This document shows, piece after piece, positions 10,701 through 49,543 of a DNA stretch of 64,000 nucleotides (the first letter of the stretch is position 1; each line of letters opens with the position of its first letter). Origin of the DNA: Psammoneis japonica (taxonomy: Eukaryota); the NCBI GenBank assembly GCA_008632985.1, contig QPGO01000024.1, positions 573,848 through 637,847 on the forward strand. Reading direction: 5' to 3'. The notes under the pieces were generated by a model. The model was not told the origin of the DNA and ran no database searches. It saw nothing but the letters and a program-made list of their open reading frames with translations. A program made the position numbers and the translations under genes.

Positions 10701-11010
10701 TGTCATCTCCAACAAAATTCTTTGAATCGAACTCGGCTTCTGCTGCTGCAGTGGAAACGATAGCTACCCGAGACGAATCGTCACCAGCAACCCTTGACGT
10801 CCTCTTTGACCTCTTGCGAAGCGACTCTTCCGAATGGTGATGAACACGCTCTTCTCTAGTTGCAGCGCTGGTCACACCAATACGCCGTTTGTACGATCTA
10901 TAAATGTCAGCGGACGCCCTCTCGGAACGCTGCCGCGCCGAAGCAAAACGAATCCGGTTCTTGCCACGCGCATCAGTGTTGAGCGATTTAATGTGTTGAG
11001 TGTTCTCCAT
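1743..11010 (-). CDS. UTP20: U3 snoRNP/SSU processome HEAT-repeat protein UTP20; exons 11010-7781, 7685-3239, 3146-1743
   Basis: Three long ORFs are joined in frame by GT-AG introns 7686-7780 and 3147-3238. Motifs include SLPEVLHH, YVRRLAAE, LTHVQIHRR..AL, LTEGYQLHV and QIFLYYLLEYP, plus a basic C-terminal tail. Confidence 0.92.
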
Positions 11011-22100: not shown

Positions 22101-25100
22101 GCTGTCTCTCCTTTGCTGGCTTTGTGCCACAAAGGAGTTGGAAAAAGCACCTGCAGATGCTTGCACAAGCAGCGCCGGCACTTTTCTTCCACTCTTTTTG
22201 TTGTCAAGGGGGGGAGGGGGAAGCTGGTGGGATGCACACTGCACAACTGGTCAAACCTTGCTTGCGTCCAAGCTGCTGGGCAGTGCAATCATGAGCAGTT
22301 GCTGGCCATTCAGAGCTTGTTTGACAAGCACAAAGTGGCATCAGCAGCATTGGCAAACTTGTTTCTGCAGCATTGTCAACAGAGATTTGTTGGATGAGCA
22401 AGCTTCCATGAAACTGGAAATCTTGTGTGACAAGCCTTTTTGACAGAAGCTTTTGCTGCTGGGGCCCATCGTTTTCAACACACTGCTGGGAGACAAAGTC
22501 TGGACAGCTGTCTTGTGTGCATGCCAGCTCATTTGCAGGTGCTGGCTCAAAGCCCTGACACCCAGCTTGGATGTGGGAAACACAGGTGGCACATCTGCCA
22601 CAGTTCTGGCTGAGCCATCTCTGCTCTGGTGCTGACATTTGGGCAGCTCCCAATGACCAAGTGTGTGCAACAGTCTCCTCATGCCCTGGAAGCACACTCA
22701 ACTGTGCTCAGCAGCATGAAACATGAAAAGAGCATCAAAACACCAACAAATGCTGTCTTTTTTGAAAAGTCAGAGTGTTGCAGGAACAGATGGGTGCTGC
22801 CTGTTGATCCATGTGTGCTGGCTGAGCACACTGTTGGTTGTCAAAGGAACTGCTTGCCTTCTGTTTTTCCTTTGGCTGTTCTTCCAGAAAATGCAGCAAA
22901 AAGAAGAGATGGCATCAGTCTGTGGCTTTGGAGTTGCAGGTTGGATTTCAAGAGAAGGCATCTGCTGCACCAGCAGAGCCACCTCCACTCTGCAGCTCAT
23001 GCTCAGATTGTCCCCAACAACAAGCAATGGAGCACACATGGCAGCCTTGCCCCTTTGGTCCTTGCAGTGCTCTCAACTGCAGCCTGCATTTTGTTGTGTG
23101 TGCCCAAACAACTGCACACCCAAAAATGACAAACAAACTGGCAGGCTGGTGGCACACAAACTGTTGATCTTTGGCAGATGGACAGATCAACCTCTAGAGG
23201 TCCCCCCACATGGCCACACATTTGCAAGGGTCCAAAAGCCCAAGTTGAAGTGTGCACCAAAAGTGCCAGGCCCCTGCAGTGCACAGGCAGTTGCTTTGTT
23301 TTCAAGCTGCCACAAAGTGCCACAAAAACATTTTTCTCAGCTTTTGAAGCACCTCATCAGATGCCATTCACAGGGTCATGTGCAGCCCCTGCACAGCACA
23401 ATCTTTGGATGGAATGAAAGGGGAAAAAGCATGGCCAGCTCTGAAACAAAACACAAAGATTGTGGCCAGCCATGGCAACAAAGCAGGGCAGGGGAGATGG
23501 CTGCACCAGCTCCGAACATCAAGCACTGCTGCTGCAGGTTTTGCAGCCCATGCTGATGGCATCACATTTGCCAATGCCATTGAGCAACTCCCTGGAGAGG
23601 TCAAAGGCCAGCTTGTTTGGAAAGGAGTTTGCAAGCTGCAGCTTGTTATGGTCATTCTGGCTGACATGCAAAAAGTGGTGGCAGGACATCTCAGCTTCAC
23701 CGTTGTCAAAATTTAAAAAAAAAACCTTGAGTGCCAAGAACAAGCAAGGTGGTGTGCTGTTTGTTCAATCCATTGTTGCCAACATGATGCCATCTCAACA
23801 AAGATGGCAAGAGGTGGCTGGGATTTCCTTCAAGAATTCTTTCAGCTGTCCTGCTCTGGTCTGCCATGCTGTTAACTTGGGAGGGGGAGAAACTCAAAGA
23901 AATGCAAAACATGTTGGGAGCAAATTGAATTTGATGAAGCAAAAGGGGGTGGCAAGAGAGGCAGTGCTCACACTTTGCACCAAGCAAAAGTGTTTGGCTT
24001 GCAACTCACAGGAGCTCTAAAAACATTCACTGCTGGAGCAGCCACCTCTTTGAATGATTTTATCACACCCAGCTAAATGTTTTTGCTTGGTTGAGCACAA
24101 GAGCATGGCTCTCCCAGCAAATTACAATCAAAATGAATGAGGTGCCTTCCCTTTCATCAAATTTAATTTGCTGCTGACACACCTTGTGTTTCTCCAAGTT
24201 TCTGTCCAGAAGCCAACCACAGTGTTTGGACAGAAGCCAATGCATGAAATCCACAAAAAGCCCATGCCTTGAGACATTGTTTGTGTTGTTGGTGTGTGTT
24301 GGTGTGACCTTTTTGGTGGTGACAGTCAAATGAAACCTTGCTTGTTGGCAGAGAAGGCACATTTCATCTGAAATTTGACAATGCAAATTGAGGCCTCCTG
24401 CTGCCTGTTTTTCAAGCCATTTGTCAGGGCCACAATGAGCCTCATCTTGCTGAATTGCAGAATCCAAAAATGCCAAATGAGTTGGCCCTTGGCCTTTGAT
24501 TTGACCCATGTGTCAGTGTGACAAGGATTGAATGTGATGCCATCACTTCAGAATGTGAAATCCACAGTTGTGTTTGTTGTTTGGAGCTGGTGTTGCTGTT
24601 GTCTCCCATGTTTCATGGTGGTGATTCATTTGAAAACAAGTGCTGCACAGGTTGCCTTCATGTGGCAGAAGAAAAGGGGCTGTCAAAGCTTTGTGTGTGC
24701 ACTTGGCTCTTGCCCCAGAATTCTCCTTCTTCTGCTGTGCAATGATGTTTTTTGTTGAGGTTCTCAAATAAATTGGTGCAATGAAATGCTGAGAGAGGCA
24801 GTGGCACTCAACCACGTGACATCGGGGTGGGCACAGCATGCCGAGTCGACAGTGAGGCCAAAGATGGCAGAAATGCATTCTGTCCGTACATCCAAAATTA
24901 AGATTTTGTTGACTACTTCACTTTGATTGTGTTGCATGCCTTGGGTTAGAAAAGTTGCTGTGCATGAGAACGTGTCGGTCGTCAGTGCGCAGATTCGACT
25001 GCAAACGTTGGAGTGACAATGTGCTGCAACTCCACCGCGTCGTGTGGTGGACAACCAAGCACTGTTGGTGCGACTTGAGAGAATGCGAACGATTGACGAG

Positions 25101-27117: not shown

Positions 27118-27609
27118 TACTGCTGTGTTTCATAAGCTGACAACAACATGCCAATCCTCTTACGAGCACTCCATACCACACGCAGATGATGATTCTTACA
27201 TCATGCTGTCGCAACACAACGCGCAACGCCCGCTTGGTGGTATGGTTTGGTCTCGATTTTCGCGGCGCGCCCTCGGATTTTTGAAATTGTATGCAATATA
27301 TAGTGTTTAAAATACTTTCAATACTATATATATCTTGAACATTATTCACCGATTGAATGTCACAAGAGTATGCAATATTCTTCATTTTTGAATAAATAAT
27401 ATAAGAAAAATGGAACTGCCATCCTCGTGGCATGGCCCCATCATTCATTCTTTGCCTCGCTTTACAGTACAGTACCGCCGCATTCCTACAGTACAGCACT
27501 GGCGCGCCCTTACATTTTGAATTTAAAAATAATGTTATTTAGACCGGAATATTTGGAATAAAGTATGCACCTGAACATCTCGTAACCTTACGATTATTAT
27601 ATTTTTAAG

Positions 27610-29090
27610 AACATGTGCGAAAAGTGCACTGCTTTTGTCCTCGCACACACGCGGCGCCTCCACCGGCACCTGCGCTGGAGACATCACCTTTTCTCGCTGC
27701 TGCGCCGAACATCCTGCTGTGCCTTTTTTTGTGTTTGCAATGGAGGGTCAAAACATCACAGAGATCAAATGGAAGTGAGGCTCTGGTTTGGTTGGTGAGA
27801 GCCAAGCCAAACAGCCAACTCTCCAAATCCAAGGACAAGCGATCACGCACCAGCAGCAGCGGCATTGAGCAGACACTCCTCAAATCACCCCCAGAGGCAG
27901 GGTGATCTCATGAGAGCATGCTGGGTCCACACTCAAACCCCCATTCTTGCACTGCAGCTTTTTCCAGGTGCATTGCCCTCATCAATTCAGGTGTTTTTCG
28001 TGCGTCAGACGTGATCTCTTCAAAGAACCTGTGAGAAACTCAGCTCCATGCCTGCTTGCACTAAAGATTTTGTCATCAGTGCTGCAGCTGCCAAGAGAAA
28101 GTCTTGTCATGTGACACTCATTGATCAGTTGCATGGAGTGTTTTGATTTTCTCTCTCATGCAGTCAGAGAGCACACTCCAGCATTCTGCGTGTTTCCACA
28201 CAACTTGTTGGGCTCACCTGCCAAAGCATTCTGCATTCCATCATTCTCCTGAGTCCATGGTTTGCTGACTTGCTGCACCCCCTTGGAAATTTGTCTGCAA
28301 GATGCACCACAAATGAGTCTAATTTCTTGCTTTTGCAGGTTTGGCACCTTTGCATCATTCAGGTGCTGGCCTTGATGATGGGCTCTCAGTCATCCTCTCT
28401 TTTGTTGTGCACCACCAGTGCACGACTTGTCACAGTCAAAACACTTGGCTTGTTGCAAAACACCACACATCTTTCTGCACTCACTGCCACAGACATGTCT
28501 CCCACTGACCCTCTGGAGGAGGCTGCACTGCAGTTGCATGGCAGATCCGTGCAATCTCTTGAGACCAAATGGTCCTCAAGTTTCTGACTCAAAAGTCACT
28601 TTGAAAGATCTCCAGCAGGTTTGAGAATTTGTTGCAGCACATTGAAAACTGAAGCCAAGACAGTCCATGTTTAATGCACAGCTGTTTCAGATGAACAGGG
28701 ATTGGTGTTTCCCAAAAATTGGTCATCCCCAAAAATGCACAGGATTTGCCTTTTGTTTTGGCCCTCATCGTCAGGTTTCCCAGTTTCCAAGTCCTTCATG
28801 GCCTCTGCAGCACCATCCAGAACCTCTCCAAGCATTGAAAATTCATCTGGTGTGATTTTAGCCTTGCACAGGGCTTTCACATGCTCTGGATGTGAATCGT
28901 CAATTGGCGTCTCCTCCGCTTCTGATGTCCTCATTGTCAACAGCCAGTCATTTCATCGCCCCAGACGCAATCGCTTTGAAACATGCCTCAGCACTCACGC
29001 TCCCTTTGTTGAGACATTTCAGTTGTTGACCCGCTTTCAAATGCACGCGAAAGAACAGATCGTCATCATCTGACCAATGCAACTCCACAT
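27610..29090. mobile_element. TpA/CpG-depleted block; decayed coding-like sequence on the minus strand, family unknown
   Basis: Dinucleotide signature; broken protein-like frames on the minus strand (e.g. 28671-28940). Confidence 0.45.
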
Positions 29091-29464
29091 CCAGGTAGGG
29101 GTGACTTAACTGTTATCGGTGCAGCACTCTACACACGCTTTAGGACCTCCCACGGCACTTCCTAACTTCAGTGAACAGAGATTCTTTGTTTTGCATCCAG
29201 GTTTTGCATCCAGCTAAAGGGATATCTAATTTTATACTGCAAAGGGACTAGAATATCCTTTGTGTGTTGTATTCTTGTGCACGAGGAGAGTGCGCTAGTG
29301 CTGCTCTTCCATTTTCTGTTCGTCCTTCCCTAGAAAGACCTTCTCGTTACTTTATGGACACTTCATTCTTTGCCAACGGACTCAATGAAGTCTCCGCTAG
29401 CGAATATGACGTAGGTACGCAGACGGAGAAAAGCTTCGAAAATTCCAAAACCGCTTGCTATAAT

Positions 29465-30715
29465 CTAGTAGCTCGAGGAGTCGAGCGAGCGAAACTCCCA
29501 CGCTTGCCGATTGAAGACTAGCTTCCACCTTAGGTCCGTTGTGCCATCAGGATTTCCGTTTAGCCAACCCTCAAATACTCCCACCCACACATTTGGTCTC
29601 GTGACGGTGGTTTCGCTAATGCTCTCTGTGTCACCGAGGTTTTTCTCTCGTTCTTCTTCGCTAGCACTTTCATCCACCTTATCCATTAGCGTGAAGGTCT
29701 GTTTGATATCGTACAGTACTTCAACTTGAGCAGCAACCTGCGGACCGTTCTCATCCTCTTTGTTCACCTTCGGGTTCTTCGCGTCTTCACCTGAATTCTC
29801 CTCAGTATCATCTACTACGTGAGCCCTGGCGCTCAGTAGCGCCACCTGTTGGAATCATTTTGTTGCAGGCCGTTCCAATAATCAATAAACAAATCTCTGA
29901 AATGCGAAAATGAACAAGAGAAAACAAAGACTGTCCTCAGTAATTCGCCAAGTCACACTTACATGTTCGATCTCGCTGCTCTCGTCTTGATAGATCCACT
30001 TGTCGCCTATTAACCACTTTGTTCTTGCAAAGTCTTGGATCATTTTGAAGTACTGAGGCGTCACCATTCTCAGTAACTGACCGGCGAGGGATTCAGGTTC
30101 TGTTTCTGCAAGCTTGTTCCAGTCCTTTTTTATAAGTTGTTTCATCTCCTTGGTCTTGTCTGTGACTTTGAGGATCGCAGCCAATTCGGCTTTGTTTGTG
30201 TGAGTTCCGAATGCTTCCAGTATCTGCATGATTTCACCGTCCCGAGTGGACGAGGGTGCTCCGTCGTTCTCTTTTTCCGCATCTACTTCCAGCTCCTTTT
30301 TATCATTGCCAGTTGTTGTGTGTTCTTCTAATGCTTCCTTCCTGACGCTGTAAACGTCTTCGTAAATCGTGTTTTCAAGTTTGCCTTGCACGTCGTGGAA
30401 CTGAATCAATGCGTCCTTCACACCCTCGCAAAATTCCCCGGGGTTGAATTTATTGTACCGCTTGAATACGGGAGAGTCCAAATCATGAAAAAGGGCTAAA
30501 GCCATGGCACTACCATGATCGGCTCGCGACAAAGTCTCCAGGCGAATGATTCCCTTGTTCAGTGTTTCGACAAACTCATCACGCTTCTCTTGAGACCAGA
30601 GAAGCTTCCAGGACGCATTGGCAGCCGACTTGAATATATCCCACGAAGTTCTGGGAGGGACCAAGAAACCCTTAGAAACAAACGGAGACGACAAGCGAAC
30701 CGTCGATGCCTGCAT
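29465..30715 (-). CDS. Hypothetical protein, possibly Tim44/Mba1-like at the C-terminus; intron 29846-29962; 5' end uncertain
   Basis: Two ORFs joined in frame by a GT-AG intron; C-terminal AQVEVLY...VWVGVFEGWL...RWKL. The domain call is weak. Confidence 0.6.
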
Positions 30716-33599
30716 GTCTTCAAACAACAAAGGGCTGCCGTAACAGAGTGAAGATGCGGTCGATGATCGATGCAGAATTCACAATGCCGATGCCTCATGC
30801 TGAATGCTCGCTCGCATCCGCCGATGCTCCAGCCAGATTAGACCGCGCGCTCCCTGCGCCAAAAAATGACTCCACTTCTGCGCCTACGTCATCAGCTGAC
30901 GTCAAGCTCTTTTGCGTGTGCGGGCGGCGGGCGTGCGTGCGTGTACACCACCATCGTTTCTACGTACAGCATTCTCTTCTTTTCTGACCCCAGGAAACAA
31001 AAAGTGCTCTCAAGAGAGTTGTTTGTCTTCTTGGTGGTCCACTGTTCAGTGCTTTGGCCAGGTCACAAAGGCAGATGTGCACTGCAACTGCAGGCACTGT
31101 GATGAGGCAGAAGCTGGCAGTCGGGTGCTGTGCCAAGCCACCAAGCACCAGCCCACGAGTGGCTCGGTTTGCGCTGCTCAGCCCAGGGCTGCAGCACCAT
31201 TCTTCATGTGGCTGGTGCACCCCTCGCAATGAGCAGCACTTGGTGTGTTCTCACTGCCATCAAAATCCACTCTGCTGTGTGGGTTTTCCAGAACAAGGAA
31301 CCCAAGTCCTTTTGCCTGGAGAGGCCTTCTTTTTGAGAATGTGCTCACCCAGCTTTGCTGCTGCATGGCACACAACAGGGTGCACTGTCCCCTCTGTGCA
31401 GCTTGTTCCATCAACTGGCTTGTGCACAGTGCTTCCTCCAAGTCCATGCCAAGTGCTGCAAATGGCGCCATGCCTTTTGCAGGTCAGCAGCTGGAGTGCA
31501 TGATGCCAGTGGAGCCTTGGCAAGCAGGCATTGCACACATCAGCTGCAAAGTCATTGTTGCCACACCATCCATGCACCCTTTCTGCATTGTTGTCCATGT
31601 CAGCCTCAGCTTTGACAATGCTGACAGTTGCACCACCATGTTTGCCCTGCTTTGCTTGTTGCAATCTGCTTTGCTTGGTGCCATGTCTGCGCTTTTGGCG
31701 ATGCATGCAGTGCAGTGCATTTTGAGGTGCCAGCACTCTCACTCTGCACTTGGCTTTAAAGGCTCTTTGTTCTCCATGGCACTTTTGCTGCAACCACCTC
31801 CCTGAGTCAAGATGGAGCAACTTTTGCCAAGGGATTGCTCTTCAGAGCATGTGTCACTCAGGAGGTGGAGCAGCATTTGTGCCATGCCGCAATTTTGTGA
31901 GCACAATGCAGCACCTCAACTGGCCTGCACAGAGCTTCACACATGCTCACAAAGGCAATTGGCAACAGCGCCAGTTCTCAATTGTTGCTTTTTCAGCAAT
32001 GGCCAATGACTCCTGGGGAGGGGGGGGGGGCAGGATGTCACCTCTGTTCTTGTTCAGCTTTGTTCTGCATCTTTGAGCCTCAGGAGAGTGTGGTTTGCTC
32101 ATGATTTAGCAATGATGCCCAGCTTGTGGGCAGAGTGCATTTTTCTGGTGCTCTGGCACTCTCTGTGAGCCACTCCAGCTTGTTTCTGGCTGAGTCCAGG
32201 CCTGTGGCATTGCTCTTGTTGCACAAGTCATCTCCAAACAGATTGGCAGAGCCCTTGCTGGAGCCATCTGCACTGACTCTGTGGGCACACTTGTGAGGTC
32301 TGCAGCATGTCTTCCAGAGCCGCACCTGGAGCAGCGCAGCTCACTGTTGTGTCATTTGCCTTGGTGCAGTGCTCCTTCCCAAGAGGTGTGCTAAAAAGAA
32401 AAAGCTTGTCAGCTCCTCAACTGCACTTGCTTCAGACCTTTTGACTTGGACAAGCTCTTGAGAAAGAATGAAAGGCATGAGGTGCTGCTGTCCTTCTTGT
32501 CTTTTTGGGGTCGTGCACTTTGTGCACTCTTGATGGCTCTCATGGGGCTGTGCTTCTCTCTCCTTTTTGAGTGTCTGCACAATGGCAAGTGGCCTTTTCT
32601 TTTCCATGTTGGTGCAAGGCTTGCCCACCCTTGTGTGCTCAACAGTGCACACAGCTCAGCCCACAGGGCACAGCTAGATCCAAAACAATTGCAGTGATTG
32701 TCTTTTCCCGAGGTGATCATCAGAGTCATTGATTTTTGTTTCTGATGTTCCTTTTTCAAGAAGAGCATTGAGAGGAAGCAAGAACACCAATTTTTTAAGA
32801 GGAGTCAACAACACTGGCTGATCTTTCTCTCTTGCTCTTTTTTGTTTGCCCATCATGACAACATCTTCTTTGTGGCCCACAGAGCTGACAGACATCCGAG
32901 ATGGGGAGTGCACTCCCTTGTGTCGGACAGACTGGCATAGACAGCATGAGAGATCGATGATCTCTCCTTTGCTCACTTTCTTTCTCATTGGCACACGATT
33001 GTCATCTGTCCAGACATCGTTAGATGTCCGATGCCTAGTCTGTAGAGCATCACATGGCAGGTGTCAAAAGCTGCAAGTGTGTTCAGTTGCAAGTGCAGCA
33101 TCCTGGGGAACCAGTGCATGAAGGGTGCAGAATCAAAAAAGAATTCCTTCTTGCACGCTCACATTGTGCTTGGTGCTGCTCTAAACAAGAAGGGAGAGAG
33201 AGAGAGAGCACAGCAAAAAAGTGTGAAACAAAAAGAGAGACAGAAAGTGGGCAGTGGGTGATGAGTGCCAACCTCTTTTTTTGTGCAAGAGAACACCACC
33301 AATGTGGCTGTTGCAAAAAGCCTGTTGGCACCATGCAGCTCCAGCTCCTCCACAAAAAAAGAAAGATGGGGCCAAATTTTCTCAGCAGAGGGCAGAGGCA
33401 GCAATGCCAAAGCCAGAACAAGTGCAAAAGCAAGAACTTTTCATCAGACAGGAGGGAAATCAAAGCAATTGGGTGTTGCATCACCAAGTTGCTCAGTTCA
33501 AAAGACTGCCACTGGCAGATGATTGTCTTTGACTGTTGCCATCACTGTGGATCCTTTTCAATGACATGAGTTGTCATCTCTCCAACGTGGGGTCATTGG

Positions 33600-36200
33600 T
33601 GTCTTTTCAGCACTGCTTGTGCTGCAATTGAAATTGGTCTGGCCAATGCTGTCAAAAAGTCTGGTGATCTTCTGCCAGGCCTCAATTTTTGTGTCAGCCA
33701 AGGTTTTGAGCCATGGTTGATTTCTGCTGACATCCTGAATGATGGACTCTCATTTTCCAGACACTTTTTCTGCACCAAACCAATGACTGAGACTTCTGGA
33801 GTTGAGCTTGGCTCCCAAGCTGCACACAAGTGCAAGCTGGCTTGGCAAACACTCTGTGCACAAGAGCAGCTCTTTGAAACCACACAGTGACACAGCCACA
33901 ACTTCAAGAAGCTGCTCTCTTGTCACTCACTTGCTGCCAGGCTGCAGCAGATGCCAAGCTGCCTTTTCATCAGGCACGGCACTCTCTTGGCACCCAAGTG
34001 CACCATGCTCCTTGTGGCAACTCAGCACTGGCTGCATGCATTGGGCAGCACCTTGAGCATCCAGTTTGTCACTCCACCCATGAACCTCAGCTGGCTGCTT
34101 CTGTGCACAGTTTGTTTTTGCAGATTCTTTCAGTGAGCACAAACCCAGGATGTTTTGGCCACTCTCTTGGCCAACCAAAAGCACTGCAAATGGCCAGCTT
34201 GCTGTGATGCCATGCACATGCTTCCATCAATTTTTTGGGCTGCACAGCAGCACAGTGCTTCTTCTGCAAATTGTTGTTTGCACATGGATTTTAATGCCAT
34301 GATGGAGCACCACACTGCCCTTCTTGAGCTCAACAAGGAACACACCCCAGAGATCCTCACCCAAGCTGACTTGAGCAGTTGCAGAGTTGTGACTCCCTTG
34401 CACCAATTTGCTGGCTCTGCTTTCTTGACAAAGCTGATGGATGGTTCCAGCCAGGTGTTGATGACATTTGCAAGTCTGCTGGCTTGAGTGCAGCATCATC
34501 CTGGGCCATGATGCAAGGAGAGCAAGCACTGTGGGGACTTTTGCTCACCGGCCCAAATGGTGCATGAGAAAGTTTGAGCAATCAGGACAACTCCATGAGC
34601 TCAGCACATTTGGCAAAGTCATCAAGCACTGCATGATGCCACAGCATTGCAGCCACACTGGCAGTGCAATCTCAAACAAGATGGCACCCATTGATCTTTG
34701 AAGTGCTGCAATGGCTCACCACACACCACACCTGTTCTGTGACACTTGTGTTTGACACACTCATTGTGTGGTGTCTGGCAACTCAATCTAGAGGATGTTT
34801 TGTGCCCTGGTGGCTGTGCTGGGCTGCTGCATTTTTGTGATGGGGGGGGTCCCCCAAATCTTCTCACGCCATTTTTCTGGTGGTTGATGATCCCATGCCA
34901 CATGGTGCAAAACCTCAATTTGGCATCAATCTGGGTTGTGCAGTTGTCTTGAAGGTGCAACATGCTCTCCAAGGGTGCCCCAAAGCTGGTGTTTTTTGGA
35001 AACAGGGTGTCAACAGCATCTTGCTGGATGCAACGACTCTTTTGTTCTATGATGATGCTCACAACAAGTGTGTGCTCATTCTGCTGCCTTTGATGGCAAG
35101 AAAATTCTCCTTCTGTGGAAGGTGGGTGATTTTTTCATCACATGTTTTGACAAATGTTGATTGCAATGGTGACATGTGATTGGGAGGAAAAAGCTCTCCA
35201 GCACCCTTCTGATGATTCTCCATCACCACTGAAGTGTCTTTGTCTGGAGATTTTCAACAATGGCCTCAATGTTCATCAGTGCAATGGCTTGATCAGTGCT
35301 GCATGCTGCAGCCACATTGACTGCATTTTTGTGTTGCATGGGTGGGAGAATCCAGCTGCAGGTGAGCCAACAATGGACTTCAAGGCAACTCCCACATTGG
35401 TCAAGTTCATTTCTGAATTGTGCACTGATGTTGCTTGGCCCCGCTGAAGATTGTGCATCACAATTGGAAAGTGATGAGTTGGCCCAGGCCCAGGCCCAGG
35501 CCCAGGCCCAAGGCTTTGTGGCTGTTGTGCCCTGCTTGGTGAGCTGTTGTGTGCTTGCATCATTTGTCATCTTGGTGCTGGACATGTTGCCACAACACTG
35601 TCCAATGTTTCCACTGCTCCAGCTCTTTCACATTGCAATGCTTTGCCCAGGCAGGTCCACCTCCTTGCCCCTTTGAATGCCCTGCAAAAAACTCAAATTC
35701 ACCAACTTCACCACAGCTGCACACACCCATCAGCTTCTGGCAATGACCTGCAGAGTTGTGTTGCTGCCCAGGACAGCATGGGCACACATCAGAAGGAGCA
35801 GTGACTTCATGCCAGTGCAAGATGCACAGTTCTTGGTCATGGTGACAAGTTCTGAGGAGATGGAATCTTGCGCACATCTGGTGTTGCAGCCAAGCACATC
35901 TTGTGTCTTTGTCATGTCCCTCACAAGTTGGGATTTTCTCTAGAGGGACATGCTCCCACACTCACCAACACCAAGTTGGTGGTCAAAACCATCAACCAGT
36001 CTGTGTCCCAGCTGGGCACTCCTTGTGCCACATTGATGCTCAACTCTTTGCAATTTAAGAGCAGAAAGAGGCTGGTGAGGTTGTCACTCAACATGTCTCT
36101 GTGGCATCATCAACTCAGCAATGACCTTTCCAATGCTTTGGGTTGGATGCTGCATGCCAGACATGTTTGGAGTGCTGTTGACAGCCCATTTTGTGGGTGC
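33600..36200 (+). mobile_element. Ty1/Copia (CoDi-like) pol remnant with RT and RNase H
   Basis: LKQDGT..CCNGS (~34671), VLKVQHALQGCPKAG..W (~34945), NGLNVHQ..HGW, GELLCACIICHL..GHVATTLS (~35538), DLSNALGWMLHARH (~36123); many stops and frameshifts; 5' limit approximate. Confidence 0.85.
35481..35510. repeat. (GGCCCA)5 microsatellite inside the Copia RT remnant
   Basis: Read directly from the sequence. Confidence 0.9.
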
Positions 36201-39200
36201 AGTGCTGCTGGCTGCACACTGCCCTTTGTTGTTTGTCATTTGTGCTGGGCCTGTTGTCATTGGAATTTTCACCCAGTCTGACTTTGTCATCACACTGTCT
36301 TTGGATGATCTGCATCATTCATGGTTGGGCATTCTTGCAGATCATGGTCAGATTAACCAGAAGCAATGGACAGACCACACCTTGGACAGAGATGAGTGCA
36401 GATTTCTTTTGAGCTGCTTCCTCTTCTCACTCTTTCTTGCTGTCACTCTTGATGCCACAGCCACCAGTTTGCAGAGAGCTTGCACACTTGTTGATCTTGC
36501 TGTCACTGCCATGTTGCTTGAGTTGCCAGCAGAGCTCCAGGAGAACACTTCCTGGGTGTGGGGGTTGTCTGAAAACTTGCTCTAATCACAACATGAGCAG
36601 CTCATGTCAGGGTCAAAGTGAGTGTGTGAGGCATCAACTGTGGCAACCACTTTTGTTTGATGTGCTTCAAGTGATCTGAGTCTTTCAGCTCATCATCTGC
36701 CAAGACAATGAAGTGAGCCATTGGCGCTGTTGTTGGAGCATGCACCCTGAAAAAAGCTTTCTGCACAATTGTTGCAATGCTTGCAACATGATCAATGGGG
36801 TCATGTGTCAATGGCAAGATGTGTTCCTTGATGAGGCACTTCCAAAGAAGGTGCACAACATTGTCCTTGCTTTGGGTGTGGCCAGTGTCATGAAAAAGTT
36901 GCAAGTTGAGAGTCTTGCCACTGCCATCAACTTGCAAGATGATGTGTCCATGGACTTGTGGGCCTCTGGATGACTGTTGTGCACATGAAACTTGATGTTG
37001 AGAGTGCAACAAGGGCATCAACAGCATCCTTTCCTCTGACAATTGGTGCCATGGTTGAGGTGTTCAAAAAAGTTTGATGTGCACACACAGAACAGCGTGC
37101 ACAATTCAACAACTTTTGCTTGCCCTGGCTCTGAGACTTTGGATTTTGATGGTCAGGCCTGGTGTCATCCTGGCTGCTTCTGGTTCTTTGCAACCACCCA
37201 GGAGCATGTGCTTGTTGGTGCTTGTGCAAGATGCCAACCAGAGATTGCAGGCCAATCTCAACAAATTTGAGCAACTGATTTCTCAAATGATGACAAGGCA
37301 AGTGTTTGGGAGAATCTCAGCAACACACACCACTGTTCTGTTTTCAAACCAATCATTTTGTTTCACCTGCATGTCAGCTTCAGTTGGGCAAAAATGGAAG
37401 CAAGTTCTGCAAGGCAAGAAAATGAGCAAGAGCCATCATGAAAGCTGCCAACCAAGACAAAGAAAGGGCACGCTGATTGTCTGTTCCATCTCTCATGGCA
37501 TCACTGCACATCTCCAGCAACAGAGCATTGTCCCCACTGCTCACATCAAACAGAATTAGCATGTCAAGCATGGGCAGGAAGCAATGAGTGATGAACCAAA
37601 ATCTGGATTGAGTGTCCACAAAACACCTCTAACTTGCAGGGGACCAATTGAAAGTTGTTGATCACAGAACATGCCAAGGATCAGTCTCCCAATTTGATGA
37701 CTTTGGAGCAGGTTGCAAACAAGGTGTGCTGGTCAGTGGAGCATGAGTTTTTGTGTGTCTTGACATCTTCTTTTTGTTCATGTCATCTCCAGCAGGTGGA
37801 AAGTCAGGAAGCAGATCCAAAATTTGTTGCACCAACTTCTTGCCTTGAGTCTTGTCTTCTGTTTGCTGCAAAATCTTTTCTGCACTGGCATCCCTCCCTT
37901 TGTTGTTTGACCATCCATGTTTTGTTTGCTGGAGCAGCAATCTTGTTGAGCATGTCATCCTTTGGAGTGTTTGGCTCTTGAGAACAGGGTGGACTTCTCA
38001 AAGGGATTTTTTGGACTGCTTCTTTTTTGCCATTGATTCTTCCTTTTGTGCCAAATGCACTTTCTCTTGACCTTCCCTCTTGGTCAAGTCACCATGACAC
38101 TGTGGCACAAGCCATGCAAAAATTCCTGCATCTGTTCCTTTTGCACCTTCTTCCCATTAAGAATTTTTCAATCCTTGTTCACTCCAATGTGCACAAAAGG
38201 AACAATTGAGTTGCATGCAGTGCGCACCTCCTGCTTGTTGTGACTGACAAAAAGGGACACAACATCTCTTGACTTTGTCGTGGAATGGTGCATCGGGAGT
38301 GACTTGTTTCAATGGGTGGCTGACACACTGAATCCAGTGATGTGATCATTTGACTGCAAGTTGTGTGCCCTAAATTGGCTCACAAGATGGCAAAGCAGTT
38401 GAATGCCACCATGAAAGCACAAAAATTTGCAAGCATGTCAACTCCATTGTTGTTGCAATTGATGAATTTAGATCATTTTTTGTTGCTTGCAGCACAAAAA
38501 GTTTCTTTGTCACTTGGTTTGGACAAGATGGACCGTGCACTGCTGCGTCACTTCAACACTGTTTTTGCATGTTGCATTTTGCTTGTTCAACAAACAGATG
38601 TGTGAGGAATTCTGTTAGACACCACTTTTCAGCATTGTTTCATTGGGTTGTTGGTGTGACATGAATCTTGTTGTGCATCATTGTGCCCCTGTTTTTCTTC
38701 ACAATGTTGCAATTTCATGAAAACAACAGGTGTGTTGATGGACGCAGCTGACCCAAGCACACAACAGCATGCAAAGCATTTGGTGCATTGTTTTTGTCCT
38801 CATCAATTTCACACAATGCACTGCATCATTGACCCTTTGCTTCTGTCACTTGGAACAAACAACCAAAAAACCAACAACACAAGGTGCACTGTCGTCAACA
38901 GCAAAAAAATCTACATTGACATGCTGCCACCATGTTGAATGCAGAGCATTGTGTTGCCACCCCACCATCACCCAGCAGGTGGTCCTCCACATTGTCATCC
39001 CATGCATGTTCTCTTTTTTGGGTTCTTTCCACAGCGATTCTGTCATTTGTTCATTTTGTTGCTTCTTTCCTTTGCCGTCAGCTGATTTTTTGTTTTGCTG
39101 TCAAACAACGGATCACACCTTTTCTCAAGCAGTTTTCTGCCAGTCAGGGCATCTTCAACAATGGCCATTGCAAGCAGCTTGCTCATCTTTTCATCACAAG

Positions 39201-41299
39201 TGAGTTGGCTTGGGGTGGAAAAACCTGTGCTCACTCTCAATCAGGGACAGTCATGCCATTGACCCGGACAACATCAATCAGCACAAAAGAATTTTTGGGC
39301 AATTCGGCCCAGCTCCTCTTCTTGTTTTTCAGGCATTTCACCAACTGTCACCATCATTTGCAGGACAAAGTGTGCTTCTGTCATGTGCATGATGTTTGAA
39401 ACCATCATGCCAAATGCACCACAAGGTGACCACCCAGCATGTCAACTGCAAAATGTGCATTGTCAAAAACACACTGACCAAATGCTTGCACCTCTGAGCA
39501 TTTTGGCATGTGTTTTCATTTGTCATGTGAGAGCAGAAGAAAGATTGGTTTCTGCCTTTTTTTGCTGTCACTGTCTGGTGTTTTCCATTGCTTTGCACAT
39601 TGACACCAGCGGCTGTTGTCTTCATCAGGGTCTAGACCCACAATGCAGAGAGAGAGAGCAACTTGATGAAAGCATGATTGACAAACTCACAAGCACAAAG
39701 AGGATCATCCAGCAGGCATGAAAGGACTGGGCAGTTTTGCAAAATGGCATTTCCATCTTGCTTTGGCTCACAACTCACAACTCTGCCACAAATCCTTTCT
39801 TGATGAAGAATGTCACCCAAAAGGAAACTGCAATGTGTTGTGGCTCTCACAAACCCATGATCATTTCCAATTGTTGCACAAGCAATGGGTGGATTGGATT
39901 GGCAGTGAAGCAGTCTGCAAAGTGCAGTCTTTACAATGCAGCAATGATTGGCAATGACAATGCAGCCAGTCTTGTTTGTCTGCATTTGGAATGAAACCAA
40001 ATGGGTGCCAATGACAACAACAGCAGCAGCAAGCACCTTCTCAAATTCTGGCAAGTGAGTGCATGAGTGGCTGCTCCATCTCAAGCAGATTGACAGCATT
40101 GACACTGGTCTTGTCAGAATGATCAACAAGGAGGGCATGAAAATTGGGTGCCATTGCCTGAGCATTGGAGCCACTCTCTCCATCCCCCATGTTTTGACTT
40201 TGAGGCAAGAATTGCCAGCCACCTTGCATTCTTGCTTGGAAGCGAATGTCACACCACTGCCAATGGGAGCATCAGAATGTCCCTGGGAGGAGGCACATGT
40301 GGAAACCACATGTCATCTGGATTTGCCAGCTGCTTTGAAAGATCACAAAAGACTGGCTCTGTGAAAAGATCCCACAGAGTTTCAGCAAAGCCACAGACTG
40401 GGAATGGTGTGGGAAACAACAGTGTTTGGGTCCATTCTTCTGTTGGTTGATGGAGTTGCTGTGCTCCATCACAGCAGTCACAGTGCAGGGAAGAGGGACA
40501 TTGCAAAAAGCTCAAGAAGCTGCTTTGTGGCCATGGCAGCAGCAGCGGAATGCTTTGTCAAATCCAATTGCTTCTTGGCATGCTTTTGGCAAACTGTTCT
40601 TGCTGCTTTGTCTGTGAAGTTGTTGTCACAACAGGCCAATGACAAAGATGCAAAAGGCAAGCCACAGACATGATGCTGGGTGAACACACAGGGGGGACAT
40701 CAAAGTGCTCATTAGAGGCAAGATTGCGTGCCAGCCCCAGTGGGTTCTTGGGATCAAAGGAGGTGTTGGCAACCAAGTCATTGTTGGGAGAAGGAGGAGA
40801 TGTTGCAGCTGCCCAACAAGAAATTGCAGCAGGGCCCCAGGCACTGTCAAGAGAGGCAGCAGCACTGAGCTCAGGAACACCAAGAACAGCACTTTTGTTG
40901 CCAAGGGCAGAAATGCCATTGTCCACAAACAACACAAATTGACAAGCATTCACAGTGGCTGCCTTGGCAGTGGCAGAAAAATGTCCAGAGCATCAGACAG
41001 ATGAAGGGCATGCACTGTTTGCAACTGCAGTGTTGCTGTCAGCAGTGTCATTGTCCAAATGTGGTGGAAGGAGGTGGAGATCTGGATTTGAGATTTGAGT
41101 GGACCTTGGGAGGGAAGGTTTGGGTGCGTTGTTGCCAAAACCAAGCACAGATGGCTCAGCATCAAATTTGCAAATGGCAACATCTTCAGAAGAGGAAAAG
41201 AAACAGCAGCTGGTGTTGTAAAGAAGCACCCTCCTTCTCACTGCAGGGTGCACACTTCCAGAGATGCTGGGCAATGTTGGAAAGGAAGTCAACTCACCG

Positions 41300-44200
41300 C
41301 CAGTGGGGACATCAGGGTCAATCAGAAAAAGACCCAACAGATGAGACAGAGACAGCATGATGGGGAAGAAAAAAAGCAACCAAAATCCAACCAGACAAAG
41401 ATGCTGCATCTGTTCTTGAAGATGTCTGTGTTCCAAGAGAAGGCAGGGAAGCAGAAGTGGTGCAGCAACACAAAAGGTGGTGCTCCATGTGATTTTCCAA
41501 GTCAAAACCAAGTTGTCCAACTGGTCAGACCAAGTCCAACATCACAGTTGGTGGCAAGATGACAAGGACAAAGACCATGTTTGGAACCAAACCCAGAACA
41601 TTTGTGCTGGGAACACACAAGACCTTCCAACTGCACAATTGCCTGTGTGGCCTGACAGAGAAAGTTGCACACACTGATCAGGTGACAAAACAGCACAATG
41701 CAAATGTGAATCACACCACAGGGCACAAAATGGATGGTGCAGGGCCAGAGCTGGAGAATGCCGGCCAACTGTCAAACACGTTGGAAGAAACTTGTGACTT
41801 GAGCAGGCACCTGACCTTTGCAGAAAAGGCATTTTCTGACAGAGAACAAGCTGCCTGGGAGGGCATGGACACTTGGAACTCTTGCAGATCCAAATGCATG
41901 TGAGCCAGAGGGCTTGGATCTAAGAATGAGTCCATGGTTGCAGGGTGTCCACTGAAGCTGGCAACAGCTGAAAGGCACGCACAATTGCAGTTGGAAGGAT
42001 CACCACCACATGATGTTCCATTGTGATGGTTCCACCAAGGGCCGTGTTCGCTGTTGTTGCTGATTGCCATGACCAATCTGACAAGTGCTTGACCAATTGA
42101 GATGTGTGTGCTCAAAAGGATTGAACAAAGAAGACAAGACAAAGAAAGCAGCTGCCAAGAGATGGGCAAAGAGGAGAGGATCTTGATGAAAGATGACATT
42201 TTCTTGCACCATGCCCACGCATCAGCATCTGCCATCTGCAATGTTGGTGCTTCGTGCTTGCTGGGAAGACTGCAACAAACAATCTGTGGCTTGTGCAGAT
42301 GAGGCTGAGTGCAAGATGCTGTCAAAGAGCTGGTCCTGATCAGTCAGTCTCAATTCAGGCAAGCTTTCAATGACACTTCTGGGTCAATCATGATTGGATT
42401 GGCTGCATCCAAGAATGCGCTGAAAAAGCTTCAGGAGCCGGGGCAGTGCAGGGATCAACATGCACAACAGAACAGGATCCACATGCTGCTTGGGTTGTGA
42501 GGGAAGCAAGTGCAGAGCAAGTGGGACCCACCCTTGCAATTGGAGGCAAACAAGGGAAGGTGTGGGACTTTGCTGCAAAGTGCACAGCTGTTGACCTTGA
42601 GAGTGCTGACCAGACTGTTGGTTGGAACTGATTTTGCCCCATTGAGGTGGCAGTGCTGTGACAAGACAACAAGCCACATTCCATCATCATTTTGTCTGGG
42701 CAATGTTCCACTGCAAACACAAACAGCAGCAGCTCCATCCACCAATGCTGAAGAAAATGAGATGGGACATCGTCAAAATCAAACAATTCATGAATGCCAT
42801 TGCAGTCAGCAAGCCAAGTGAACTCTCAACCAAACAATGACTTCTTCTGCTTGGGGAACACCCAGCGGCCAACTGATGTCTTGCCTGCACAAGAGTGGCA
42901 TGATTTTTCTGATGCAGTGGTGGCACGCACAACAAGAAGACTGTTGGTCTCAGAGGAATGCCCCCGGCCATTGCAGATCAAAAAAACATGGACCACCTTG
43001 AATTTCAGCAAGCTCAGCTGCTTCAGCCAAGCAAACATTGGGATTGGCCTGGAGCAGGGGGCTGCTCCCACTGCATCTTTGCTCCAATTGGTCTTGACAT
43101 GGAATTGCCAGCTGCAATCTGGTCAAGCTAAAACCAGACCCAACAAAACATCCTGCCAGAATCCAGCAAAGAATGCTCATTTGACATCTGGTTCCATGGC
43201 ACCAGGTCCTGGTTGTTTTGCTTGAAGCTGTCTAAAAGGAGTCAATCTCACTTCAAATCATTCTTTCCAGTTTTGGCAAAAACTGAATGCAGCAATCAAC
43301 ATGCAAAGGCTGCCCCTTGTTTTGGGCAGAGGCAAGGATTGGAGTGCATCAAGCTTGGTGTGAGCTGGAGAGCTCCCATCCTCACAGATGTCAAGCCCTG
43401 CAAATTCCACTGTTGGAGACAACCACTTGCATTTCTTGAGCTTGGTGGTGATGAAGTGGTGCTGGAGCACCTTGAGAACAACCTCAAAGTGTGGGAATGG
43501 CCATTTTGTCAAGGGCACAAAATGTGTGCAGTCATCATGATGACTTTGGAGCTGCAAGGTTGAATGACAAAGCAGACACCAATGCCATCACAATCAAGAT
43601 CTGGGTGCTTGTCAAAGAATTGAGCTTCTTGTTCTTTTTGCAATGCGGCCATCATGGCAACAAAAATTGCACGTGCATTGACAAAGCCCATTGGCATCAC
43701 ATTCCAGCAGCTTTTGCCTTTGGGAGCAAAAAACGCCATCTTTGCTCTTGGTGCCTTCTCAAGCAACACTTGCCAATGACCACAGTCAAGATCAAAACTG
43801 AGAAAAACTTGGCTTGTGGCAGGATGTCTTGCACCACATTGTCAAACCAAGGTGTGTGGAAGTTGAAAGGATGAGTGACCTGATTCAACCTGTGGCAAGA
43901 GACACAAAGGCACCAAATGCATTGGTGCCATGGCATGTTTTCTTGATGTGGTTTTGCAGCCAGAATGACAAGGGCTCCCCAAGGGCTCTCGGCATCACAA
44001 AAAATCAAATCATTGTTTTCAAGATGATCCAAGAGCTTTGCCATGGTGCAAGACTTGTGGGGGGCACATTGAGGCAGCTTGCAACACACTGGAACTACAT
44101 CCCTGGTGTCAATCTGACACAAGAAACCTGGATGTGTTTTCTCAGCCCTTCTTCATGAAATGCAGCCACAATCTTTGAACATGACTTCCATGCCAACTGG

Positions 44201-47200
44201 CAGGTCCAGGCAATCACCCAGCTCCATGTGATGTGATGGCAACTTTGGGCACCAGATCTTCTCAGTGGTGCGATCAGCACCTTGTAAATTTGGTGATGGC
44301 TTGGATGGAAACAAAGGTTTGAGCACATCAGTTGCTGGACTGGTTTGATCAGCAACAAGGACAGATGAAGATGCAGATGTGACAAACTTGCAATGTGATC
44401 TTGTGGAATCAATGAGAAATGCAGACGGCATGGCCCACTGCCACAGCAGGCCTTGGAATGTCAGCATTGCACTTGCACATGGATTTGACAAGCAAAACAA
44501 AGATTCCAAGGTCAGACCAGAGAACAACTCTCATTCATGCAGCTCAATCCCAGGGACAAAGTTGTGCTCTGGATTTGGTGCAAGCAGGTCCTCACGTTGA
44601 GCCAGCATGAAGAACTCCAACAAATTGTCAAAGACAGCACATGCTTGGTTGACCAAAAGTTGCCATTCAGCTGCCAGTGCCACAGAGACCTTGACTTCAA
44701 CCTGAGCTTGTTCAATGGCTTCAGATGCAGGTTTCTACCATGTCAAGTCAAGCAGGCAGGGAAGAAGCATGAGCACCTTGTGAGCCTGCACCTCCCATCA
44801 AAGGCACTTGGTCTGCTTGATGCAGGATTTGACAACAAACAGGGAATGCATGACCAAGGCATTGGCACAACAGCATGTCTTCTGACTCACTGTGCATGAA
44901 GAGAATGCTGTTGGTGGCTTGCACGAGTGGCAAACTTAAAATTGTGTTGGCAGATGCTGATTTAACTGACAAACCAAATGAAGCCATCACATTCTGGGCA
45001 CTCACCTTGAAAGGGGTTTTGTGGGCAATGACTGTGACAACTCAGGTCACATCACCATTTTCATTGACACCTCCAACAGAAAACTCAAGGTTGTCCATGT
45101 CCTTGATGTGCTTGAAGGTTTCTACAATGTCAGGATTTGCCTTGCAAATGCTCTTGTGGTGCACTGGACATCCCAGGCTGAGTCCAGTGCAAGTGTCAAC
45201 CATGGCGGTGTTCAGGGTGGCTTGGTGCTTGGTGCCAACTGGGAAACAAATGTGAGCACAACTCAGCTTGCTCTCCTGATCAAATCCTGGGCACTTTTGC
45301 TGATGCTTCCACAACTTGAAAATCAATCAGCAATGGGAAACAAATGAAATCAGCGCTGCCTGCACCTTGTCACAACGTGTCACCTGGTGGTTGTGGGGGA
45401 CAAACCAGAGCAGTGTGACCCCATTTGTCATGCAACAGCAACAAGCAGCACACCGTTTGAGTTGCATTTGAAGTTGATGGGTTGGCAATGGACACAACAA
45501 GATCTGCCATCTGTTTGGAGGGGTGTCCATCTTTCTCCCATGAGGAATGAAAAAACATGCAGTGCTGCTGGAAGCTTGTGCAGCATTGTCTAAAGATCCA
45601 TCTTGTGACAGAGCGCTGAGAGGAGGAATGCCCCACGGATGTTTGGCTGGAGTCAGAGAGGAAGCATTTGCTTGTGCTGCCAAATTGCCATGATGAGGAC
45701 AACTGTGCCAACAATGAAAACACTCCTTGTGGAATGACTTGTGACCTGTGCATCCCCAGCACTCAACAAGAGGAAATGATGTGATGGGGCAGCTCATTGC
45801 ATGGCATCCTCTGCTGCACTGAGGAGCACAGACGTGAGCATGGAAATTTGACACAGATCATCTGCATTGTCAATGTTGTCCATGCCCTTGCTTTGAACTT
45901 GTGTTTGGCCACTCTGCACTTGACATGTGACAGGGTCCTTGGGATGACAATCATGTTCTGAGTTTGGGACAGTGGCAAAGGCTTGGGCACCTGCATCAAT
46001 CAGATGGGAGCAAGAGCCTTGTGCACTGGAACGCAATGCAATGCCCCAAGCTCTGTTCACCTCTCAGCGCACTTGCAAAATCTGGCACTCTTGAGTGTTG
46101 GTCTTGTTGGGTGGTCTTGCAGGATCACTGAACAGAGGATCAGCCACTTCTCCTTGATCCATTGAGTTCTGATCCAAAGCAGAGTGGAAAACTTGTGGCA
46201 GGTCAAGAGTGAGCTGGCAATCTGGCACAACATGCTGACCCGCTTTCAGAAAACAAGGCAGAAATCTTCTGTGTTGCAGTGGTGTGGCTGTCCATCCACC
46301 ATTGCAGTTTGTTCTAAGTGCAAAACAGTGTCCACAATCTGAGCATCCATGACAGTGGCTCCACTGAGGAACTCCACTTTAGTGCGCTCTCACAAGAGAC
46401 GCAGTTTGCAGTCAAAGAATTGCTCACTTGAAACAAAGCTTGGCCAGCAGGATGGTTCAGAATGCCCAGTGTCGGAAAGATGCTGCCAAGATGGGCCACA
46501 CAAGCATTCAATGTGGCTTGAGGATCACACAAAACTGCTGCTGTCAATGCTGGAAGCAGCAGCTCTGATCCATCATCTAGATGAGTGGGGTCGTTTATGA
46601 CAGGCCAGGTGTTGGGAGCTGAGCGGCCACTGGGAATGTTTTGGCACTCAAGCAAGCAGTGCTGAGGACATCAGGGGCCCAATTGAAAGCCAGAGCGGCA
46701 TCAATTGTGAGGTCAAAAGTGCAGAACTTTGCATTGTGGCAAACATTCTGGACAAATGGGGGAGGAGGTCCCTGCCGGATTGGGGGTTGCTGGGAAGTTG
46801 AGTGCGCCACCCCTTTCTGTGCAGATCATTGGGCTGCTGAACAGAAGCATCCCAGCTGGGGCTCCTGGCACAGTGACAGGAACATCCAGCCCAGCTGCAT
46901 TGTCACAAAGGCATCATCTGAGTGCGCTGTTGCCTCACCAGACAAGTGATTGATGGAAAGCATGAACTCAGAACATTGTGTTTGGTGGTGAGTGCAGGTG
47001 TGCATGGAGTTGCATTGATGCTGCTGACCATCAAACAACAGGAGTGCTATCTCCACAGAGTTCTCTGGCACTGCAGTGCAAAGATTCGCAAGTTTCTGTG
47101 GCAGGTTGAAGGTGCACAAGCCCCGCTGCACCTGTTCTTGGGTGATGACGGCGAGGGGGTCATTGCGACAACGGCCACCTCCCCTCCCTGCACAAAGTTG

Positions 47201-47341
47201 AGCCGACATCACAACAAGGCAAACAAGCAGAAAAGGTCGGGGTTCGACTTGCAGGGTGGGATGTAAAGACAACTGCAACACAGGAAGTCCTGTCTCTCGC
47301 ACGTCATAATGGATGACTGACTGACGGACGCTGTCGTTACA
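41300..47341 (-). mobile_element. Ty3/gypsy LTR retrotransposon remnant (gag knuckle, protease, RT, RNase H, probable integrase)
   Basis: Domain order on the minus strand: CWGC..H..CP (~45700), MVDTCTG protease (~45190), SPWGALVILAAKP..CLCVSCHRLN, AFFAPKG..VMPMGFVNA, KLKKCKW..VEFAG (43300-44100), EFTWLADC..QHWWMELL (~42750); candidate LTR start TGTAAC at 47341; 3' limit approximate. Confidence 0.88.
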
Positions 47342-47661
47342 GACGCCATTGTGGGAATAATCCAGAATTTTGGGCACTCGAGTAGCTTACAATCACGCCC
47401 TATCGTGTATCGTAATTTTAGTGTACAGCATGCATGGGAGCAACAACTCACACAAGGCCATTGAGCCTCTAGAGAGTAAATTAGAAAATTATGAATATTC
47501 GATATGACAAGGCAAATAAATACGAAAGAGGCAGGAATACAGTTGTTTTCGAAGCTGGGTCCAGCCGAGGGACATGGAGCTACCCAAAGATGAGAGGCGA
47601 TAGATGGATATAAGACCATCAATGTCGCATCGGAAGTTGCAACATCCATGCTCAGCTTCTG

Positions 47662-49497: not shown

Positions 49498-49543
49498 NNN
49501 NNNNNNNNNNNNNNNNNNNNNNNNNNNNNNNNNNNNNNNNNNN
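49498..49543. other. Assembly gap (46 N)
   Basis: Run of N. Confidence 1.

Follow-up and report, generated by a model that had tools for sequence, protein, structure and literature searches.

The stretch of DNA analysed here (the window) comprises 64,000 nucleotides of the Psammoneis japonica contig QPGO01000024.1 (positions 573,848–637,847, forward strand). This report concerns a block of about 16 kb within it that is almost devoid of the dinucleotides TA and CG and that contains relics of two long terminal repeat (LTR) retrotransposons, one of Ty1/Copia and one of Ty3/Gypsy type. The window carries eukaryotic genes, represented by long reading frames for UTP20, frataxin, a Na/H exchanger, a Not4-type RING protein and a NUDIX-HAD protein. 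Over the whole window, observed/expected ratios are low for TA (0.39) and CG (0.62) and high for TG (1.43) and CA (1.45). This deviation is concentrated in blocks located between genes, at 1–441, 751–1391, 19171–24841, 27861–28901, 31131–47141 and 59421–60981. The largest block and its two relics are as follows.

31131–47141, no strand assigned: largest block, about 16 kb, almost without TA and CG (TA 43, CG 90, TG 1881, CA 1874)
34632–36167, plus strand: Copia relic, reverse transcriptase (RT) and RNase H/C-terminus, from colinear profile matches (RT at profile positions 863–1190, RNase H at 1296–1387)
41953–44146, minus strand: Ty3/Gypsy pol relic with RVT_1 and RNase H in three frames, from a custom profile

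Per kb, the block at 31131–47141 contains 2.7 TA, 5.6 CG, 117.5 TG and 117.0 CA, compared with 41.8, 56.3, 70.0 and 68.0, respectively, in the genic comparison DNA at 2001–18000. The joint deficit of TA and CG (about 90 per kb) approximately equals the joint surplus of TG and CA (about 96 per kb), and the missing TA and CG therefore reappear as TG and CA, a balance that was observed directly. Expressed as ratios, the depleted DNA stands at 0.04 for TA, 1.82 for TG and 1.94 for CA, and TpA is depleted about 15-fold. The depletion is unbroken over the 16 kb, reaching far past the Copia and Gypsy relics, and its edges are sharp, falling within 100–300 bases. The final TA of the left flank lies at 30965 and the first of the right flank at 47264; CG is sparse after 30963 and is back at about 47087–47149. 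The flanking genic DNA has 38–42 TA per kb.

An earlier reading made from the letters alone (the sequence-only reading) had noted a degraded Copia motif within 34660–36200, a region with 4 TA, 4 CG, 207 TG and 174 CA. It had listed Y→C, Y→H and R→H replacements there and had named TA→TG and TA→CA as the changes at work. The motif was located as follows.

35538–35603, plus strand: motif GELLCACIICHLGAGHVATTLS, 22 residues, where the intact relative P0003 reads GELLYAYIVCRPDIGYAVTTLS

Over the motif stretch P0003 has LLGELLYAYIVCRPDIGYAVTTLS, with LGWVLHARH following later. The codons are those that had been named, with TGT and TGC for two Cys and CAT for both His. Compared with P0003, the changes of TA or CG type are Y→C (twice), Y→H (once) and R→H (once), and a V→I change is compatible with a C|G→C|A step; five further changes fall outside these types (P→L, D→G, I→A, A→V and V→A). 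The assignment of Y→C and Y→H to TA thus held, but R→H is a CpG change and not a TpA change. In the same way, the loss of TA that the sequence-only reading described is borne out, but its account left out the erasure of CG, which is equally thorough.

A 267-residue read-through of 35478–36278 (genetic code table 4, two TGA read as W) was used as a phmmer query against 1,835,955,588 protein representatives, which returned two matches at E≤0.001. P0002 (E 8.7e-6 against the whole library) aligned at query residues 124–231, and P0003 (E 7.1e-4) aligned at residues 18–57, which is the motif region. P0003 itself has 349 longer relatives at E≤1e-20, and the 120 of these that were listed are Copia polyproteins carrying PF13976, PF07727 and PF25597, with gag_pre-integrase, RVT_2 and retroviral SH3-like domains. 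Where the listed matches have names, these are of the diatoms Nitzschia, Cylindrotheca and Fragilaria. P0026 and P0054, both closely related to the diatom Copia polyprotein, bear the label of a Flammeovirgaceae metagenome-assembled genome and are probably misbinned eukaryotic contigs. A Copia profile was built from 23 of the 120 listed relatives, all full-length (1358–1466 residues) and with all three families, and the other 97 were excluded. It matched the plus strand at nearly the coordinates of the sequence-only reading, whose Copia identification is thereby upheld.

34632–34769, plus strand: Copia profile 863–908, RT start (domain E 1.4e-10)
34847–35074, plus strand: Copia profile 939–1013, RT, in another frame (domain E 5.2e-11)
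35065–35154, plus strand: Copia profile 1010–1039 (domain E 0.052)
35187–35648, plus strand: Copia profile 1050–1190, RT end and linker, with the motif inside (domain E 6.7e-11)
35481–35510, plus strand: (GGCCCA)5 microsatellite, an insertion relative to the Copia profile
35886–36167, plus strand: Copia profile 1296–1387, RNase H and C-terminus (domain E 0.0051; P0002 also aligns here)

RVT_2 corresponds to positions 868–1101 of this profile. The tail of the RNase H/C-terminal segment reads LGWMLHARH in the relic and LGWVLHARH in P0003, and the relic as a whole contains at least four frame changes plus in-frame TGA stops. In a control with reversed translations, no match had an E below 1.2. 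Pfam returned no family at E≤10, RVT_2 included, on the three plus-strand frames of 34000–36500 read through with X; the intact relative P0004 itself scores merely 43 bits against Pfam RVT_2. Positions 1–862 of the profile (GAG, protease and integrase) found no match anywhere in the window at E≤10, and the missing 5′ half was either truncated or has decayed past recognition. No direct repeat pair representing LTRs was found around the relic by blastn or by comparison in purine/pyrimidine space, which is what a missing 5′ half would lead one to expect. Judged by its resemblance to these polyproteins, 34632–36167 (plus strand) is a decayed, 5′-truncated RT–RNase H relic of a diatom-type Ty1/Copia element.

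The second relic was reached through the reading frames of the block. The interval 31000–47500 (16.5 kb) yields 138 stop-free pieces that are 70 residues or longer, and all six frames have long open stretches, because the TAA and TAG stops are gone with TA. Among these 138 pieces, Pfam gave a single significant match, RVT_1 at 43512–43841 (minus strand), and sub-threshold chance matches to Cys_box and MamL-1. The RVT_1 piece led to its relative P0124 and then to Ty3/Gypsy polyproteins, 10 of 15 of which were used to build a Gypsy profile. This profile matched four segments.

43799–44146, minus strand: Gypsy segment (E 4.4e-38)
43602–43817, minus strand: Gypsy segment (E 4.6e-27)
42643–43491, minus strand: Gypsy segment (E 5.6e-68)
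41953–42150, minus strand: Gypsy segment (E 0.0032)

From the matches of the Copia profile on the plus strand and of the Gypsy profile on the minus strand it follows that the block contains a pair of LTR elements that are unrelated and face opposite ways, and the identities of both relics are direct observations. Two relics so oriented provide a clean internal control against an origin in reverse transcription or RNA editing.

This arrangement was used to follow the direction of change. A Tyr codon (TAY) turns into Cys through TA→TG and into His through TA→CA; at a CGN Arg codon, the corresponding outcomes are TGN (Cys, Trp or stop) and CAN (His or Gln). Codon position biases the visibility of events at the protein level, and a fair test of the strand is therefore given by the counts for Tyr and Arg alone. 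The family columns counted were those with at least 60% Tyr or at least 60% Arg.

Copia relic, plus strand, 13 Tyr columns: Cys 7, His 3, Met/Ala/Leu 3, Tyr 0
Gypsy relic, minus strand, 10 Tyr columns: Cys 4, His 5, Phe 1, Tyr 0
Copia relic, plus strand, 18 Arg columns: TGN 5, CAN 6, Arg 1, other 6
Gypsy relic, minus strand, 20 Arg columns: TGN 6, CAN 5, Arg 4, other 5

Over both relics, Tyr is retained at 0 of 23 columns and replaced by Cys or His at 19 of 23. Cys and His together occupy 10 of the 13 Copia Tyr columns against a background of 12/234 (Fisher p 8e-10), and 9 of the 10 Gypsy Tyr columns against 3/222 (Fisher p 5e-13). A looser count by consensus letter gave a similar picture in Copia, with 16 Tyr positions read as Cys (8), His (4) or other residues (4) and 20 Arg positions as TGN (7), CAN (7), Arg (1) or other (5). 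One change at a TA or CG step accounts for 44 of the 154 Copia departures from conserved residues and for 41 of the 99 Gypsy departures; in 500 shuffles the departures so explained averaged 12.3 and 11.2, respectively, with maxima of 25 and 22.

Both TA→TG and TA→CA thus occur, as the sequence-only reading had stated, and both outcomes were observed directly in the plus-strand and in the minus-strand element, for Tyr as well as for Arg (TGN:CAN of 5:6 in Copia and 6:5 in Gypsy). Its two further statements, that both strands are affected and that the process is common to unrelated elements, agree with these counts, which show the same pattern in two LTR superfamilies on opposite strands. It had also named a strong strand asymmetry tied to element orientation as the result that would suggest RNA editing or mutagenesis at the RT stage; no effect of orientation on the Cys:His ratio was detected (7:3 against 4:5, Fisher p 0.37). 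The pooled Tyr events divide as 11:8 (binomial p 0.65) and the pooled Arg events as TGN:CAN = 11:11. In the looser Copia count, the TG and CA outcomes derived from Tyr and Arg were also put in order by eye, and no obvious clustering into strand tracts was seen.

These results bear on mutagenesis intrinsic to the elements before integration, whether by RNA editing, by cDNA editing or through the error spectrum of their own reverse transcriptase. Editing of the APOBEC and ADAR types is known to target retroelements, and the present case would share with APOBEC3 and ADAR action the mutation of retroelement sequences by host deaminases. The substrates of APOBEC3 and ADAR, however, are cDNA or RNA, and their traces are strongly asymmetric with respect to the strand of the element, whereas no strong coding-strand asymmetry is present here (Tyr 11:8, Arg 11:11). 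Each of the two elements shows both Y→C and Y→H and both TGN and CAN, regardless of its orientation, and the identical pattern is found in two unrelated superfamilies. The depletion is furthermore continuous over 16 kb, with sharp edges unrelated to the positions of the relics, and the window differs from a second sequence of the same locus by TG↔CA doubles (described below). We regard an origin within the elements as very improbable.

The second sequence came from a public run, X1, as contigs made from exact 31-letter words, with a word depth of about 57 in flank and block alike. At the locus, 136 X1 contigs were found, of which 51 are at least 99% alike, with long pieces that differ by 4–18 letters each. 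They reproduce the block poor in TA and CG, which is thus not confined to this assembly. Two other runs, X2 and X3, contain next to none of the stretch, X2 being limited to the flanks, and no RNA run is listed for it. Over 18,001 bases, 135 substitutions separate X1 from the window, in addition to 58 small insertions or deletions. The substitutions comprise 111 transitions (A>G 28, C>T 29, G>A 28, T>C 26) and 24 transversions. Event types were derived from 40 of the 135 places, corresponding to 34 events: nine CG↔TG/CA changes in both directions, four adjacent TG↔CA doubles (at 33788, 33888, 34151 and 34313), one CA↔TA change, 12 other transitions (including one adjacent AT→GC pair), seven transversions and one complex event. 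The left flank at 30000–31130 (1131 bases) contributed one of the 40 rows. The TG↔CA doubles fit the expected trace of one ancestral TA or CG resolved on opposite strands in two lineages, and their presence between the window and X1 would place the change after insertion. Taken with the lack of an orientation effect, the two superfamilies and the sharp-edged 16-kb block, they support a host mechanism over reverse transcriptase errors, as the sequence-only reading had proposed.

The same comparison bears on whether the signature could stem from sequencing or base calling at modified bases, with 5-methylcytosine at CG and some modification at TA. The sequencing platforms of the assembly and of X1 are not on record, and the number of differences between the two over 18 kb would be in keeping with such errors. 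Yet contigs built from exact 31-letter words at a depth of about 57 reproduce the block, the pattern at the protein level (Tyr to Cys or His, Arg to TGN or CAN) is that of real substitutions, and the public protein relative P0124 shows the same losses. An artefact of this kind is hardly credible.

Two other intervals stood out by word depth in X1. At 32404–33004 the depth is 2538, compared with about 57 nearby, and this interval is therefore a high-copy repeat; at 39015–39615 the depth is about double.

Whether TA and CG were lost through one process or two was approached through the block edges and the relatives of the relics. At several edges, the TA-free zones exceed the CG-free zones by 130–250 bases, and at 27606–29096 and 59421–61293 each TA-free zone encloses narrower zones free of CG. 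The block at 59.4–61.3 kb keeps 16 scattered CG in 59421–60981 but has a single TA between 59421 and 61292. P0124, a Gypsy relative of 219 residues without Tyr, has lost Tyr at 4/4 columns and kept Arg at 4/5, and P0002, a Copia relative, has kept Tyr at 3/3 columns and lost Arg at 4/7, to Cys or His, although these numbers are small. By sequence, P0124 and P0002 look like copies with just one of the two losses each, and this contrast, together with the unequal zones, favours two processes with a common target.

A single promiscuous system, in which one deaminase or complex hits both the C of CpG and the A of TpA, would explain why TA and CG vanish in the same blocks with similar completeness and why, for both steps, the two strands take roughly the same share of the changes. 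There is a precedent in amphioxus ADAT2, which edits both A and C in DNA, as cited in a preprint on the alga Bigelowiella natans (Mettrop et al., bioRxiv 10.64898/2026.01.13.699255). The wider TA-free zones, the scattered CG of the 59.4–61.3 kb block and, in small numbers, the opposite losses of P0124 and P0002 speak against it, as does the fact that CpG has no occurrence in the available text of that preprint (10.64898/2026.01.13.699255). We consider a single system quite unlikely.

Across all TA-poor blocks, 63 TAs survive, of which 43 lie in the context YTAR (CTAA 15, TTAA 12, TTAG 9, CTAG 7) and none in RTAY; the shares of these contexts among TAs of genic DNA are 17% and 29%, respectively. 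The surviving CGs lean the opposite way, with RCGY at 54/133. The context of the surviving TAs may reflect either symmetric recognition of a duplex site or biased creation of new TAs. A target rule of the form TAY or RTA found no support, as the previous base does not predict the direction of change at the 22 consensus-Tyr positions that are now Cys or His (Cys after R 8, Cys after Y 6, His after Y 5, His after R 3).

The signature runs opposite to that of fungal repeat-induced point mutation (RIP; Neurospora and other Pezizomycotina), which changes C to T, mainly at CpA, and thereby creates TpA. Common to both are mobile DNA full of transitions on both strands, a dinucleotide signature and broken reading frames. 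Here, in contrast, TpA is destroyed, being depleted about 15-fold instead of enriched, and CpA and TpG are created. RIP moreover depends on sequence duplication and on a sexual phase; no second copy was found in the window.

The closest published case is the TpA hypermutation of B. natans, measured in mutation-accumulation lines, where integrated DNA of giant viruses and virophages undergoes TpA→TpG/CpA changes and an adenine deaminase has been proposed as the enzyme (10.64898/2026.01.13.699255). The two cases share the TpA→TpG and TpA→CpA changes (A:T to G:C on either strand), the depletion of TpA with enrichment of CpA and TpG, and the restriction to foreign or mobile DNA with normal flanks, here with two relics identified in the block. 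They differ in that the present host is of diatom type (a stramenopile, as judged here from the relatives of the Copia relic alone) and the targets are relics of LTR retrotransposons. The TA ratio here is 0.04, near saturation, compared with 0.45 in the nucleocytoplasmic large DNA virus (NCLDV) region of B. natans; CpG is erased here too, whereas the available preprint text mentions neither CpG nor diatoms; and the rate was measured there in mutation-accumulation lines, whereas here the process is known from sequence alone (10.64898/2026.01.13.699255). No description of TpA erasure in diatoms was found in the literature searched.

For the CpG half, diatom methylation falls mainly on CpG and is densest in blocks of repeats, which reach 30 kb (PMC5124317). 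Decay of 5-methylcytosine would account for the CG→TG/CA changes, for their occurrence on both strands and for repeat blocks of up to tens of kb that lie beside unmethylated gene-rich DNA, and the CpG decay in the block fits known diatom biology. Unlike the present case, however, deamination of methylcytosine leaves TpA untouched, and the present block is presumed to be methylated.

Both losses might also be a by-product and no defence at all, if silent, methylated and untranscribed chromatin gathered TpA and CpG transitions from unrepaired lesions or from error-prone repair without transcription-coupled repair, and without a dedicated deaminase. TA and CG are lost in the same blocks, between genes; both relics are old and carry several frameshifts, which would leave time for a slow process; and over most of the block no mobile-element protein can be recognised. 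Against this stand the sharp block edges, and we know of no spontaneous process that takes TpA to a ratio of 0.04 by A→G changes. Moreover, the B. natans signature arises within a mutation-accumulation experiment and in some lines only, which suggests regulated activity (10.64898/2026.01.13.699255). We therefore treat the by-product as a minority possibility, unlikely but to be taken seriously.

The evidence supports a host-level process that acts on DNA and on both strands, independent of element and orientation. The explanation we consider probable as a whole is that dead Copia and Gypsy relics lie in a silent block whose TpA and CpG were rewritten by such a process. Under this explanation, the Copia and Gypsy remnants would have been resident in the chromosome first and the rewriting would have followed. 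Nearly all TpA would have been converted to TpG or CpA by A:T to G:C transitions on either strand, and nearly all CpG to TpG or CpA by C:G to T:A transitions on either strand. In coding terms, Tyr would become Cys or His, and CGN Arg would become Cys, Trp or stop, or His or Gln. The TpA part may represent the work of an enzyme that deaminates adenine and targets silenced mobile DNA, comparable to the TpA hypermutation of B. natans, and the CpG part may represent deamination of 5-methylcytosine in methylated repeats; the two losses would then be separate processes with a common target.

Several points weigh against this explanation. Over the 16-kb block, the 138 stop-free pieces gave one significant mobile-element match, and 110 of the 154 Copia differences lie beyond any single TA or CG step. 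The window holds no unmutated copy of either the Copia or the Gypsy element, and the residues treated as ancestral are those of the family consensus and not of the true ancestor. The events are few (19 for Tyr), the 7:3 ratio in Copia is compatible with a moderate bias, and a strand bias of up to about 3:1 to 4:1 would be compatible with these counts. The losses of TA and CG coincide, so that 31131–47141 taken alone is no proof of a TA-specific system. Finally, X1 may be the source sample of the window, in which case their differences could be assembly errors or strain differences.

The window has further blocks and features, among them a second block of this kind.

19171–24841, no strand assigned: second TA/CG-free block, without a recognised protein family (TA 15, CG 19, TG 674, CA 636)

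Pfam on 52 pieces from the other blocks returned no families. At the left end of the window, 1–1660 forms an array of tandem repeats, offset by about 116 and 346 bases, that is also low in TA and CG; within it, TG and CA are strongly unbalanced at 1–441 (36 versus 83). Comparison of the window with itself, by blastn and in purine/pyrimidine space, returned this array and short chance matches only. The UTP20 homologue at 1746–11118 (minus strand) is split over three long open frames of 510, 1537 and 1113 residues, the third without a Pfam match, and an assembly gap of 46 N lies at 49498–49543.

For genome annotation, DNA freed of TA lacks TAA and TAG stops and consequently offers many long spurious frames, a likely source of false gene models. 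Relics in such DNA also evade transposon annotation based on Pfam, and the gene and repeat catalogues of genomes of this kind may be distorted. On a broader scale, and as a tentative proposal that we hold at somewhat less than an even chance, diatom-type algae may have a dedicated, chromatin-directed defence that deaminates adenine in DNA. In such a defence, TpA in silenced mobile DNA would be rewritten to saturation on both strands, beside the decay of methylated CpG, as a counterpart of RIP with opposite chemistry. Its presence in the rhizarian Bigelowiella as well would make it possibly ancient within the SAR supergroup, and the YTAR survivors together with the random choice of strand would point to a duplex RTAY-like site. 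If true, this would constitute a second, chemically opposite mutational genome defence besides RIP, extending beyond the one alga in which it has been measured.

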